Source of the DNA: Candidatus Terraquivivens tengchongensis
GTDB taxonomy: Archaea > Thermoproteota > Nitrososphaeria_A > Caldarchaeales > Wolframiiraptoraceae
Assembly (NCBI GenBank): GCA_023261845.1
Contig: JALNJZ010000003.1
Location: 32,001-96,000, forward strand
Length of the DNA stretch: 64,000 nucleotides
Direction: 5' to 3'
This document shows, one piece after another, positions 5,644 to 52,791 of this stretch. Within the stretch, counting starts at the first letter, position 1, and every line of letters begins with the position of its first letter. Under the pieces are notes generated by a model. That model made no database searches. It saw only the letters and a list, made by a program, of their open reading frames with translations, and was not told where the DNA came from. A program made the position numbers and the translations under genes.

Positions 5644-5741
5644 TGGCGCCGCGGGTCGGATTCGAACCGACGACCAACGGGTTAACAGCTTCAGCCCCCT
5701 TCTGCGAGGTCCGCTGCTCTACCGAGCTGAGCTACCGCGGC
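5644..5741 (-). tRNA. tRNA-Asn(GTT) with a 21-nt intron at position 30/31 (5690-5710) and encoded CCA
   Basis: Cloverleaf GCCGCGG...CCGCGGC, anticodon loop CTGTTAA, T-loop TTCGAAT; the intron forms a bulge-helix-bulge. Confidence 0.95.
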
Positions 5742-48370: not shown

Positions 48371-49438
48371 ATGACTGGACAAAAAGCCGGCCTACCGATC
48401 TTGAGCAAGTTTCTAACGCTTTGGATCTTCTTGGCAATGATAATCGGCATAGGCTTGGGCTATGTCTTCCCAGATATTGCTGATGTGCTGGGTCAGCTAA
48501 GCATAGGCACGACCTCCATCCCTATAGCGATAGGTCTAATCTGGATGATGTACCCGCCTCTTGCCAAGGTAAGGTATGAGGAACTTAGGAAGATAGTCAC
48601 AGCCAAGGGTTCGAAGACTATGCTTACAGAGTCGCTTATACTCAACTATCTGGTAGGCCCGTTTCTTATGTTCGTCCTTGCATGGATATTCCTCGCAGAT
48701 TACCCTGAATTCAGAAACGGCGTAATCCTAGTAGGCTTAGCAAGATGTATAGCGATGGTTATCGTCTGGAACGACCTTGCTGATGGTGACAGGGAGTGGG
48801 CTGCCATACTCGTCGCCCTGAACTCGGTCTTCCAGATTTCGTTCTATTCCGTATATGCCTACTTCTACATTACCTTCGTAAGTTCTTGGATTGCCGGTAC
48901 CGGCACGGTAGTTGATATATCCTTTATAGAGGTTGCCACATCGGTCCTCATATACCTCGGCATACCGTTCTTTGGCGGAATGATTACGCGCTTTTATTTC
49001 CTTAAAAAGAAGGGAAGGGAATGGTACGATAGAGTTCTCATACCGAAACTCGAGCCAACATCCCTCTTTGCCCTGCTGTTCACCATAGTTGTGATGTTCT
49101 CCTTAAAAGGCGAATACATAATCACGCTTCCGATGGATGTCGTAAGGGTAGCAATGCCGTTGCTTTCTTACTTCGTTATAATGTTCCTCGTATCCTTTCT
49201 GGTTGGCTACAAATCTGGTCTTGATTACAGCAGGGTCACTTCACTGGCTTTTACGGCCGCAAGCAACAACTTTGAGCTCGCGATAGCCGTGGCTGTGTCC
49301 GTTTTTGGCTTAGCCTCAAAGGAAGCCTTTGCTACAGTGATCGGCCCCTTAATAGAGGTTCCAGTGATGATCTCTTTGGTAAACGTGGCACTCTGGTTTA
49401 GAAAGCGCCTTTACGAAAAAATAAAAGCAGTCGTATAA
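48371..49438 (+). CDS. acr3: ACR3 family arsenite efflux transporter
   Basis: [29 protein letters not shown]. Confidence 0.95.
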
Positions 49439-49623
49439 ATCCACAAAATTCAAAAACTTGTTTGGTAAGGAGTGCTAAATGTAACATAGCGTTTCGCCGT
49501 GCGCTCTGGCTAATTTGGAATCCAGATTGAAGTTTAGGATTTTCTTGAAGGTTAGCTTTGTACAAATTTCCAAAAGCTTCCCCATCATTAGAATTGTAAA
49601 GTGACGTTTTTACTATTTTAGAG

Positions 49624-49637
49624 TGAAATGTATAAAT
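49624..49637 (+). promoter_or_regulatory. BRE/TATA promoter for the structured RNA
   Basis: TGAAATG-TATAAAT ending ~23 nt before the RNA 5' end. Confidence 0.6.
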
Positions 49638-49660
49638 CAGTGTAAGTATTGTGTTAATTT

Positions 49661-49867
49661 GCGTCGTCCGGAAAAGGAGAGGCTGGCGCTAAGCAACACC
49701 TGGGGGAAGCCTCAGGTGTTGTATGCGTCGACCCATGCCCAGCGCTCCGGGGCTGCTTTGGCAGTACCTCCAAGCTGGGTATGGGTGGGAGGTGCCCGTA
49801 GGGCATCAGGGGTTAATCCATGGAGGGTGCCCTAGCAGGGAGGCCCGCCATCTCCGAAAGACGACGC
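49661..49867 (+). ncRNA. Unidentified highly structured non-coding RNA (~207 nt)
   Basis: 132/207 G+C in AT-rich flanks; terminal helix, two 13-bp helices with G-U pairs and further hairpins; upstream TATA. Confidence 0.75.
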
Positions 49868-49889
49868 AATTATAATTAATTCTTGTCAT

Positions 49890-50561
49890 TTAGGCCTTTT
49901 CATATGAACCGCATGATGCGTTCTTAAGTCTCATCATTTGCTTAACAAACTCGTAATATTCCTGCGGCGACAACTCGCTAACCATTACTTCGTCAACGTT
50001 TATCACGTAGATCATGTAAAGCCTTGCGTTAAGTATCTCTTCAAGACTAACGGGCGGTTTCGTGTAGTAGAGGTCGCAGATTCTTTTAATGTAAAGTATC
50101 TCTTCCTTAGTCCTGTCCCTTGGTGGTTTTAAGAATACATGTGGCACTTGGACGATGTTATGTGGCGGCGTTCCGATGCCGAACTTTTTTGCAAAAGCGC
50201 TGTACCTAGCTATTTTGCTGGCAACCCTGGCTAAGAGATAGGTATTGGGGTCGAGTGCATGCTCAGGAGGCACGAAACCTGTCTCTATCTCGATTATGAT
50301 GTTACCATCACCTTTTACTCCATATATATCGCATGTGAGTATCTCGTTAAGCTTATGCTCAGCGTCCACCTCATATCCCTTAACGATTAGGTCGGCAGCG
50401 CAGACGACCTCCATCACGGAATGGTTTATCTTAACCATGTTGGCTTCGTATAACTTACACAATTTTTTATACACGTCGTCAAGTTTGTTTACAACTTCTT
50501 TGCCGTACTTATCGCCTATTTGCGCGATGACTTTCAAGACGTCTTCTTCGAATTTATTCAT
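49890..50561 (-). CDS. Hypothetical protein with a PD-(D/E)XK-like motif
   Basis: HSVME...EH...CDIYG.KG...IEIETG; start inferred at MNKF. Confidence 0.75.
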   Translation of the reverse strand: MNKFEEDVLKVIAQIGDKYGKEVVNKLDDVYKKLCKLYEANMVKINHSVMEVVCAADLIVKGYEVDAEHKLNEILTCDIYGVKGDGNIIIEIETGFVPPEHALDPNTYLLARVASKIARYSAFAKKFGIGTPPHNIVQVPHVFLKPPRDRTKEEILYIKRICDLYYTKPPVSLEEILNARLYMIYVINVDEVMVSELSPQEYYEFVKQMMRLKNASCGSYEKA

Positions 50562-50742
50562 CAAAGCTGTCAAAATGCTTGATAAAGATAAACTTTTGAT
50601 AAACTCCAGAAGCCACCGCAAATAACGAATGAACTGGTTTTTAAGCTCTGGCCATAATTGTAGAGCTGCTCTATGGATTAATACCGTCTTACTACTCGTG
50701 TTAAACACTTAAAACGTGATTGATGATATTACATAACCAGAG

Positions 50743-52791
50743 ATGGCAAAAGACCCCGTGTGCGGAATGTTCGTGGAGGAGACTGATGATGCTCTAAAAA
50801 CTACCGTGAGGGGTAGAACGTACTACTTCTGCAGCGAAACTTGTCTCAAGACATTCTTGATGCCTGAGGTTGAGGTTAGAAATCTGAAAAGGATGACCAT
50901 CCTTAGCTTCGCGCTAGGAATACCTGCCCTCATGTTGACATGGTTCTTGAGCCTACCCTTACCTATACCCAATAGTCTCCTGCTATTCTTTTTAGCAACA
51001 CCGGTTCAGTTTGTCGCGGGTTGGTCTTTCTACAAGGGCATGTGGCACGCTATTAAGGTCAAGTCAGCAAACATGGACACACTTATAGCCATAGGGACTT
51101 CTGCGGCATGGCTTTACAGCACGCTAGTTACGTTCATACCTTCCGTATTTCCTGAGGGTTTATACTATGAAGTATCGGCGTTAATAATAGCATTCGTACT
51201 TCTCGGAAGATTACTCGAGCATGTTGTAAGGAGGAAGGCATCGGATGCTGTGAGGAAGCTTATGGAACTCCAACCAACCACAGCAAGAGTGCTACAGGAT
51301 GGCACCGAGACAACAGTCCCCGTCGAGAAGGTAAGGGTTGGCGACCTTTTGTTGGTTAAACCAGGCGAGAAGATACCGGTAGATGGTGTAGTCGTCGATG
51401 GTCATTCGACAGTTGATGAAAAAGTGATCACAGGTGAAAGTATTCCTGTAGAGAAGGAAGTGGGCAGCGAGGTCATAGGTGGTACGATGAACAGAAGCGG
51501 AATCCTCTTGATTAGAGCTACTAGGGTTGGAGCCGACACCACTTTATCCCAGATAGTAAGACTTGTCGAAGAAGCTCAGGCCGCACAAGCTCCGATAGAA
51601 CGTTTAGCAGATAGAGTGGCCTCCTACTTCGTTCCCGTGGTCGTGGGCATCAGCATAACCGCATTCTTAATATGGTACTTCCTTTTCAGTAATCCGCTCA
51701 CCGGTCTTACGGCATTCATAGCAGTTTTGATAATAGCTTGCCCTTGTGCCTTGGGTTTAGCGACACCGGCAGCCGTGGTGGTTGGTTTAGGAAAGGGTGC
51801 TGAAAACGGTATTTTGATAAAAGGTGGCGAAAATCTTGAAAGGGCATATAAAATAACTACCGTGGTCTTTGATAAGACGGGCACACTCACAAAAGGTGAA
51901 CCAACAGTAACTGGCATCATCCTGTTAGATGAAATGGATGAGAAAGAAGTCATGAGGCTGGCCGCATCCGCAGAGTCTGGCTCGGAGCATCCTTTAGGGG
52001 AGGCCATAATTAAGAAGGCGAAAGAACTCGGAGTAGAACCTGTCAGACCGGAAAGCTTCGAGGCAGTTCCCGGCAAAGGTATTCTGACAACCGTGAATGG
52101 AAAACGTGTAGCAATAGGCAACAGGAAATTATTCCTTTCGTTGGGTCTTGAATTATCCGAACTGGAAGAAATTTTGAGGGCACTTGAGCAGGAAGGTAAA
52201 ACGGTGTTGATAATTTCGATTGATAAAAAGCCGGTTGCCCTAATAAGCGTGGAGGACGTTCTGAAGGAGCATGCGGCCGAAGCAGTGAACCAGCTGAAAT
52301 CCATGGGCCTCGAAGTCGTAATGCTTACGGGTGATAACGAAAGGACGGCGAAGGCTATAGCAAAGCAGCTGGGGATCGAACACGTGGTGGCAGAGGTCTT
52401 GCCTTCTGAAAAGCTCGAAAGCATAAAAAAGCTTCAGACGAAGGGAAAGATCGTGGCGATGGTCGGTGATGGCGTGAACGATGCTCCGGCGCTGGCTCAG
52501 GCCGACGTAGGAATCGCCATAGGTAGTGGAACAGACGTTGCGATAGAGACTAGTGGTATAGTCCTGATAAGAGAGGACTTAAGAGATGTCGTGGCAGCGA
52601 TAAAGCTCAGCAGAGCTATGATGCGCAAGATAAAGCAGAATCTTTTTTGGGCTTTCGCTTACAACATGGCGCTTATACCGGTGGCCGCCATAGGCTACCT
52701 CAACCCTATACTGGCCGGTATAGCCATGGCTCTGAGCTCGGTCAGCGTAGTCACGAACTCTCTTACGTTAAAAAGGCTGAGACTAAGATAA
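50743..52791 (+). CDS. copA: Cu(I)-transporting P1B ATPase with N-terminal YHS/TRASH domain
   Basis: DPVCGM..FCS..C, CPC, DKTGT, SEHP, YN, MALSS. Confidence 0.95.
   Translation: MAKDPVCGMFVEETDDALKTTVRGRTYYFCSETCLKTFLMPEVEVRNLKRMTILSFALGIPALMLTWFLSLPLPIPNSLLLFFLATPVQFVAGWSFYKGMWHAIKVKSANMDTLIAIGTSAAWLYSTLVTFIPSVFPEGLYYEVSALIIAFVLLGRLLEHVVRRKASDAVRKLMELQPTTARVLQDGTETTVPVEKVRVGDLLLVKPGEKIPVDGVVVDGHSTVDEKVITGESIPVEKEVGSEVIGGTMNRSGILLIRATRVGADTTLSQIVRLVEEAQAAQAPIERLADRVASYFVPVVVGISITAFLIWYFLFSNPLTGLTAFIAVLIIACPCALGLATPAAVVVGLGKGAENGILIKGGENLERAYKITTVVFDKTGTLTKGEPTVTGIILLDEMDEKEVMRLAASAESGSEHPLGEAIIKKAKELGVEPVRPESFEAVPGKGILTTVNGKRVAIGNRKLFLSLGLELSELEEILRALEQEGKTVLIISIDKKPVALISVEDVLKEHAAEAVNQLKSMGLEVVMLTGDNERTAKAIAKQLGIEHVVAEVLPSEKLESIKKLQTKGKIVAMVGDGVNDAPALAQADVGIAIGSGTDVAIETSGIVLIREDLRDVVAAIKLSRAMMRKIKQNLFWAFAYNMALIPVAAIGYLNPILAGIAMALSSVSVVTNSLTLKRLRLR

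Follow-up and report, generated by a model that had tools for sequence, protein, structure and literature searches.

A stand-alone archaeal gene for an abundant circular structured RNA with BHB ends, adjacent to a gene for a predicted PD-(D/E)xK-fold protein

Archaeal circular RNAs that arise at bulge-helix-bulge (BHB) motifs have been known as processing intermediates and as introns, and a dedicated gene has been described for one such circle, a rearranged SRP RNA. The BHB motif is defined as a helix of 4 bp with a 3-nt bulge at either end, one in each strand (PMC4090602, available text); relaxed versions of this motif are tolerated by (alpha-beta)2-type EndA (PMC6379350, available text), and the combination of EndA and RtcB is the accepted route for circularisation of RNA in archaea (available text of PMC12918454 and PMC12558985). 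With regard to the lineages of interest here, the available text of PMC12918454 reports that no circles of pre-16S rRNA were observed for Bathyarchaeia and Nitrososphaeria.

The RNA gene analysed here is located at positions 49661-49867 (+) of a 64-kb stretch of the genome of Candidatus Terraquivivens tengchongensis (hereafter the window). Like the permuted SRP RNA gene of Thermoproteus (PMC4731332, available text), it appears to be a free-standing non-coding RNA gene, with a transcript that is excised at a BHB motif and closed into a circle as its working form; unlike the Thermoproteus SRP RNA, the RNA described here has no match among known families, and the genome carries a normal SRP RNA gene elsewhere. 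Circular pre-rRNA intermediates and tRNA introns of archaea (PMC12918454, PMC12558985, and PMC4090602, available text) share with this RNA the BHB motif and the presumed use of EndA and RtcB; however, unlike circles that originate from rRNA operons or tRNA genes, the RNA is transcribed from a promoter of its own, lacks functional exons, and adopts an elaborate fold that is conserved. A third comparison is with the circular isoforms of the omega RNAs of archaeal IS200/IS605 elements (PMC12558985, available text), which are also circular RNAs encoded beside a nuclease or nuclease-like gene. The omega RNAs, in which no BHB motif was found according to the available text of PMC12558985, are multi-copy and belong to mobile elements, whereas the RNA described here has a canonical BHB, is encoded by a single-copy gene, and neighbours a protein with a predicted PD-(D/E)xK fold rather than TnpB. 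In the literature searched, neither this RNA nor its association with the protein is described; the supplementary circRNA tables of PMC12558985 and PMC12918454 may list the RNA. We consider it very probable that this stand-alone gene gives rise to a BHB-processed circular structured RNA; EndA and RtcB would be the acting enzymes, and an RNA-protein particle is proposed with less confidence.

A single-copy gene for an uncatalogued structured RNA

Positions 49661-49867 (+) represent a single-copy, promoter-driven gene for an uncatalogued structured RNA. A previous sequence-only reading of this DNA had described a GC island of approx. 64% in AT-rich flanks, and GC content is 0.64 in this region as compared to 0.36-0.375 in the 200-nt windows directly upstream. 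The same reading had proposed a folded structure; its helices (i.e., the closing helix P1, GGAGA/UCUCC, two 13-bp helices, and small hairpins) were recovered both in the minimum-energy fold of the + strand (-119.9 kcal/mol; z -7.5; 0/200 shuffles as good) and in the circular fold, and the folding z of the - strand is only -4.7. No serious candidate ORF was found in 49661-49867, as homologues show single-base insertions and deletions. An archaeal promoter specific to this gene had also been proposed and was substantiated by comparison of genomes; TATAAAT (49631-49637) is part of a putative promoter block (49607-49639, +), the 33 nt of which are near-invariant in all seven genus genomes. The 21-nt spacer between this block and the RNA is variable, and conservation ends exactly at 49867 when the seven genomes are compared with 60-nt flanks.

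Searches against known families support that the RNA is uncatalogued. At the gathering score, Rfam returned three tRNAs only for the whole window; for the linear RNA (49661-49867), Rfam 15 yielded no match at the gathering score and none inside the RNA at E ≤ 10, with the 5-nt edge of a chance snoRNA match (E = 3) representing the sole overlap. Among 10 homologous loci, no RNA-internal Rfam match was found at E ≤ 0.1, and inspection of the RNA loops by eye for K-turns and C/D boxes revealed nothing consistent. Archaeal RNase P RNA (166 bits) and SRP RNA (120 bits) are encoded elsewhere in the genome searched (1.22 Mb, 99.4% complete), and the RNase P type T model had no match in the whole genome. 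An identity as SRP RNA, RNase P RNA, or type T RNase P is ruled out by the Rfam result for the linear RNA together with the canonical SRP and RNase P genes elsewhere, in agreement with the sequence-only reading, which had seen no SRP helix-8 or RNase P P4 motifs and had suggested a possibly undescribed stable archaeal RNA; the absence of an Rfam match, full-length covarying homologues, and strong + strand expression all bear out that suggestion. A known RNA (SRP, RNase P, or other) in permuted or reduced shape that escapes linear models would have a precedent in Thermoproteus, where the SRP RNA is made by BHB circularisation of a permuted gene (PMC4731332, available text), but is very unlikely here, given the canonical SRP and RNase P RNAs encoded elsewhere, the empty type T model, and the lack of even a partial Rfam match for the linear sequence at E ≤ 10 or for the 10 loci at E ≤ 0.1. 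In a separate part of the window (5647-5741, -), an Rfam tRNA match with a 30-nt insertion (52.8 bits) coincides with no ARAGORN tRNA; it presumably represents an intron-bearing tRNA with an unusual anticodon arm.

The terminal inverted repeats of the gene, along with its viroid-like size and shape, would fit a MITE, which had been named as the alternative to an RNA gene, another mobile element, or a viroid-like replicon. However, the 99.4% complete genome contains one copy of the RNA (one full copy by BLAST, one by nhmmer), which rules out a MITE, and relatives also carry one copy per genome. Since the gene furthermore has a fixed neighbour and its own conserved promoter, a mobile or viroid-like origin appears vanishingly improbable.

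The 184-nt circle and its BHB ends

Expression of the RNA was assessed with metatranscriptome reads mapped on positions 49300-50900 of the window; runs X2 and X3 had zero reads there and hence provide no test, and X4, a stranded hot-spring run, yielded 691 reads. Read depth in X4 is 360-525 across 49678-49839, 0 over 49300-49623 and 49894-50163, and 1.6-4 over the neighbouring protein gene, with the RNA approx. 100-fold more abundant than neighbouring genes. The first mate maps to the - strand in approx. 98% of reads; as this pattern matches that of the copper ATPase gene (+) and is the opposite of that shown by the protein gene (-), the RNA is transcribed from the + strand.

A back-joint, 49856>49673, is present in 226 X4 reads from 74 start positions, i.e., approx. 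one third of the mapped reads (226/691), and two minor variants of this joint are represented by 11 and 3 reads. Read depth falls away outside 49673-49860, with nothing over P1 beyond the junction reads. In X1, which represents a separate study, a 214-nt contig (depth 110) maps to 49802>49673 and then to 49856>49773, and thus circles round a 184-nt molecule. The mature RNA is a 184-nt circle with its joint within the BHB bulges, located at 49675-49858 (+) or, as the same product, at 49673-49856; with AAAG after each cut site, the register of the joint has a 4-nt ambiguity, which includes the canonical BHB position, and 49675-49858 are the coordinates if the second base of the bulge is the last before the cut. 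The circular fold of this RNA has a free energy of -102.6 kcal/mol (z -6.8). Reads in these data sets stem from close relatives in environmental samples and not from the exact strain, with C for T at 49684 in nearly all X4 reads and an extra G after 49748 in 61/395 reads; both differences are most simply explained by strain variation of the RNA within the community sampled.

The sequence-only reading had predicted a linear + strand RNA of approx. 207 nt closed by P1, and these data uphold the strand but not the size or form. P1 is a perfect covarying 8-bp helix and the linear fold is very stable, as would be expected for a linear stable small RNA of approx. 207 nt closed by this helix. P1 is nevertheless removed in processing and absent from the mature RNA; read depth begins at approx. 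49673 and stops at approx. 49860, 226/691 reads cross the back-joint, over P1 there is no depth beyond the junction reads, and a role as the outer helix of the BHB accounts for the conservation of P1. A linear product is thus highly unlikely.

The ends of the precursor match the BHB definition, with CGGA/UCCG between AAA and AAA and helices on either side. Specifically, the central helix, designated H, is formed by CGGA (49669-49672, +) and UCCG (49853-49856, +), with the latter also contributing the 3' strand of stem P2 in the mature RNA. The 5' bulge AAA (49673-49675, +) is the site of the 5' cut, as the back-joint falls here, and the 3' bulge AAA (49857-49859, +) is the site of the 3' cut according to the back-joined reads; the head-to-tail junction is located inside both bulges in the 226 reads and the one contig. 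Outside the bulges, the outer helix h (identical to P1) pairs 49661-49668 with 49860-49867 (+) and is removed from the mature RNA, and the inner helix h' completes the motif. Among 34 homologous sequences, 8/8 pairs of helix h covary with 100% of cells paired, and helix H shows changes on both sides at 3/4 pairs, with 94.9% of cells paired and with CGGG/CCCG, CGAA/UUCG, and CAGG/CCUG among its variants; h' is weak in the same sequences (2 bp, 82% of cells paired). The RNA-level selection that the sequence-only reading had proposed from G-U pairs is evident in these 34 homologues, which keep their helices by compensatory change with 97% of cells paired; none of 500 shuffles reached the observed covariation score, and pairing drops to 34-47% when helix partners are slid.

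The canonical BHB cut falls after the second bulge base; a cut at this position yields the circle 49675-49858, identical to the observed product, and we infer the exact cut register at the bulges on this basis. The genome encodes two EndA paralogues (PF01974; 105 and 61.5 bits; G000:C2:162594-162851 and G000:C1:8741-8998) as well as one RtcB match (579 bits). The presence of two paralogues suggests a heterotetrameric EndA, the type that accepts relaxed BHB motifs, and from these gene predictions we infer that EndA would make the cuts and RtcB would join the RNA ends. In the mechanism that we propose, transcription from the TATA promoter would produce a short precursor, the ends of which would fold as a canonical BHB with an 8-bp outer helix, CGGA/UCCG, and two AAA bulges. 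Both bulges would then be cut by the housekeeping splicing endonuclease, probably of the alpha2-beta2 type in view of the two EndA paralogues, and the ends would be ligated by RtcB. The resulting 184-nt circle would refold such that stem P2 arises from pairing between GGAGA and the former 3' strand of the BHB helix, yielding a P2 capped by a GAAA tetraloop made by ligation, with three arms on a four-way junction.

Conserved architecture and distribution of the RNA family

In the circular fold, P2 is closed with G-A-A-A across the junction; its 5' strand (49676-49683, +) pairs with 49847-49855, and after ligation its tetraloop is composed of G49856, A49857, A49858, and A49675. All five P2 pairs tested covary, with 90% of cells paired, and the ligation junction is a GAAA or GAGA tetraloop in every lineage inspected. 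Arm I (49684-49730, +), which is present in both the linear and the circular folds, consists of a 6-bp and a 13-bp helix with the apical loop GGG-NN-GCC; 4/6 pairs of its apical stem covary with 100% of cells paired, and MAFFT with RNAalifold identified 10 pairs in this arm, nine of them covarying. Arm II (49731-49786, +), also found in both folds, contains a 13-bp helix, an internal loop, a 5-bp stem, and a stable tetraloop. Covariation was observed for 3/5 pairs of its apical stem and for its basal stem as well; the MAFFT and RNAalifold alignment of this arm returned no structure.

The region of arm III (49788-49846, +) can fold into either three small hairpins or one long arm; these alternative folds are possible in this genus because a GGUGCCC segment is duplicated. 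The three small hairpins drawn in the sequence-only reading are indeed present in the minimum-energy fold, but a single long arm, as found in other genera, is the more likely form of this 3' third. With constraints limited to the outer helix and to 4 bp of P2, 28/34 homologues folded by themselves into P2 plus exactly three abutting arms of approx. 50, 57, and 55 nt. As judged by covariation, selection is visible on two conformations, i.e., the BHB of the precursor and the mature stem with its ligation-made tetraloop.

Excised BHB introns persist as circles in archaea (PMC12558985, available text), and the RNA could by analogy be a long-lived but functionless by-product with no tie to a protein. 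By contrast, the gene has no meaningful exons, as the excised part is flanked by an 8-bp stem only, compensatory change preserves the three arms, P2, and the tetraloop at the junction in lineages with little shared sequence, and the abundance of the RNA is approx. 100 times that of neighbouring genes. We thus regard a functionless by-product as improbable and favour a circle that is itself the product of the gene.

The homologue search and covariation analysis that the sequence-only reading had put forward as a check yielded full-length covarying homologues in related genomes. BLASTN identified full-length copies with 84-90% identity in 6/6 other genus genomes and in 0/34 genomes outside the genus. 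R1, a covariance model derived from the seven sequences of the genus, returned full-length matches in 14/35 genomes of the family Wolframiiraptoraceae (7/7 in genus g1, which includes the window, 3/3 in g4, 3/8 in g5, 1/14 in g2, and 0/3 in g3). A regex-and-pairing script detected the RNA, each time with a perfect 8-bp terminal helix, in all 15 of the 15 loci missed by R1. In L111, the sequence directly before the RNA (approx. 2379-2395) consists of N, i.e., masked or withheld bases, and the promoter comparison does not extend to this locus. Genes for the RNA and for the neighbouring protein are therefore adjacent in 29/29 protein-bearing genomes of Wolframiiraptoraceae (14 + 15 loci), a count that leaves out a broken second copy in genome G043 (L131). 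The protein is encoded in 29/35 genomes of the family (0/3 in g3); the six genomes without the protein had no R1 match for the RNA, and a scan of five of these six (G045 left out) for the loop motif gave 10 matches, none of them in an RNA context. At one g2 locus (L021:1-1111, -), a 16S rRNA gene starts approx. 390 nt upstream of the RNA gene in divergent orientation, an arrangement absent from nine other loci scanned.

Beyond the family, a scan of species-representative genomes identified at least 553 relatives of the protein, and 80 loci were kept; the closest named records among the matches listed are MAGs titled Candidatus Terraquivivens. R1 matched two Terraquivivens loci, Nitrosocaldus (L061), and a related record (L089) among these 80 loci; in L061 and L089, the RNA shares the strand of the protein gene and is located approx. 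65 nt downstream of it. Three further loci, all from ammonia oxidisers (L065, L069, and L088), were identified by a descriptor scan and have the same layout and architecture as in Nitrosocaldus. Within the order, sister families encode the protein in 15/19 (f2), 3/4 (f3), and 1/18 (f4) genomes; its presence in just one f4 genome indicates that the RNA-protein pair is dispensable. R1, run without filters, placed the RNA next to and convergent with the protein gene in 5/14 sister-family loci, namely four in f2 (L151, L152, L154, and L155) and L145, which represents the single protein-bearing f4 genome. In six g9 loci, the search for the RNA remained negative; relaxed scanning of another 16 loci from Nitrososphaeria and Thermoproteota yielded no convincing candidate, and nhmmer with the family profile yielded no further members among the 80 loci. 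These wider searches used R1, nhmmer, and our own scripts, an approach of reduced sensitivity; a generic BHB scanner was too permissive (167 matches in shuffled loci and a comparable number in real loci) and was used for recurrent motifs only. According to these searches, the predicted RNA family is represented in three families of Aigarchaeota, Wolframiiraptoraceae among them, as well as in Nitrosocaldus and some of the ammonia oxidisers.

The adjacent protein and a second class of BHB-flanked RNAs

The gene convergent with the RNA (49890-50561, -) encodes a protein of 223 aa; its start, which was placed by alignment of 14 orthologues, is Met50 of a 272-aa ORF, and its stop codon is located 22 nt from the end of the RNA gene. 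Genes for this protein of approx. 223 aa represent the only neighbour common to 14/14 loci, on the opposite strand and with abutting or overlapping 3' ends; an arsenite-carrier-like gene upstream of the RNA is common only within the genus. No Pfam, NCBIfam, or PADLOC match was found for the protein and PHROG gave weak noise only; in a protein atlas, its relatives are solely clusters of "hypothetical protein". These relatives are numerous, with 3966 at E ≤ 0.001 (50-58% identity) in Aigarchaeota, Thaumarchaeota/Nitrososphaerales, and Bathyarchaeia records.

An AlphaFold2 model based on 15 sequences (pLDDT 91.6) indicates that the protein has a PD-(D/E)xK restriction-endonuclease-like alpha/beta core fold. 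With residues 43-200, VIA-align identified 3dnx (SPO1766; Z 11.2, rmsd 2.5 over 104 residues), 1y88 (AF1548; Z 9.0), 2okf (XisH; 8.9), and the C-terminal domain of NucS (2vld; 7.3), and the Foldseek list is in agreement with a PD-(D/E)xK core. The predicted core fold is common to SPO1766, AF1548, XisH, and the NucS C-terminal domain over residues 43-200, with only 12-14% identity and with an N-terminal helical hairpin that the 223-aa protein adds. E51, D78, E91, E93, and K116 are invariant in the 15 sequences, with the classic (D/E)xK represented by ExE. Eight Bathyarchaeia loci (L027, L028, L047, L049, L060, L072, L077, and L090) also contain a candidate gene for a small GIY-YIG nuclease approx. 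100-200 nt after the stop codon of the protein gene, identified from the motif GKGAKYT as read by eye from the DNA.

Orientation of the two genes varies, as they are convergent in the Aigarchaeota families and on the same strand in Nitrosocaldus and the three ammonia-oxidiser loci; adjacency is kept in both layouts, and the link hence survives changes of orientation. Regulation of the convergent protein gene in cis or by antisense pairing could account for adjacency, as the 3' ends of the genes abut or overlap and, in g4 and g5, the protein gene ends with codons encoded opposite the P1 3' strand. Antisense action is impossible, however, in Nitrosocaldus and the ammonia oxidisers, where the RNA is downstream on the same strand and its structure is yet kept, and the overlapping part is absent from the mature circle, making a regulatory role of this type improbable. 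We are instead inclined to think, on balance, that the circle and the adjacent PD-(D/E)xK-fold protein may work together as an RNA-protein particle, because adjacency persists through three gene arrangements and because both genes are present or absent jointly.

A second class of RNAs, approx. 150 nt long, was identified by nhmmer in 29/80 loci (e.g., L032:1058-1220, L035:1041-1202, and L079:1039-1200, all -, and 26 more loci), which are mostly from Bathyarchaeia and include one Geothermarchaeales record. Directly upstream of the protein gene, these RNAs occupy the opposite strand, in divergent orientation, in 28/29 loci and the same strand in L045 (Geothermarchaeales), and end in a canonical BHB with a RAGC/GCUU helix and bulges ANG and AGA; a short version of approx. 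110 nt is found upstream of the protein gene in 3/3 f3 loci (L156-L158, at approx. 2285-2395, +). The second class gave no match with R1, is absent from Rfam, and does not occur in the genome of the window. It is probably circular as well. A BHB-flanked RNA of one class or the other adjoins the protein gene in 36/80 loci; in the 44/80 protein loci of other lineages and the six g9 loci where these methods detected no RNA, either the methods missed diverged RNAs or the link is non-universal, and these loci weaken the case for a joint particle.

Prior to this study, circles with BHB ends were thus known from intermediates, introns, and one rearranged SRP RNA, and the locus described here adds a dedicated, promoter-driven gene for a highly abundant circle with its own conserved fold. 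Our findings also suggest that other unexplained archaeal RNAs of approx. 200 nt are worth checking for BHB ends and circularity. It is possible, if doubtful, that a new ribonucleoprotein nuclease is formed by the circle together with the PD-(D/E)xK-fold protein; such a nuclease would be widespread in Nitrososphaeria, including ammonia oxidisers, and would have a counterpart in Bathyarchaeia, with the second class of RNA beside the protein. A bolder form of this reading would have the particle act in RNA processing, with the lack of circular pre-16S rRNA reported in PMC12918454 and the 16S rRNA gene near the RNA gene in L021 as possible hints. If this were true, the protein would be defined by its partnership with BHB-derived circles. 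An orphan protein family with relatives in ammonia oxidisers, Bathyarchaeia, and hot-spring Aigarchaeota gains, in any case, a concrete candidate partner.
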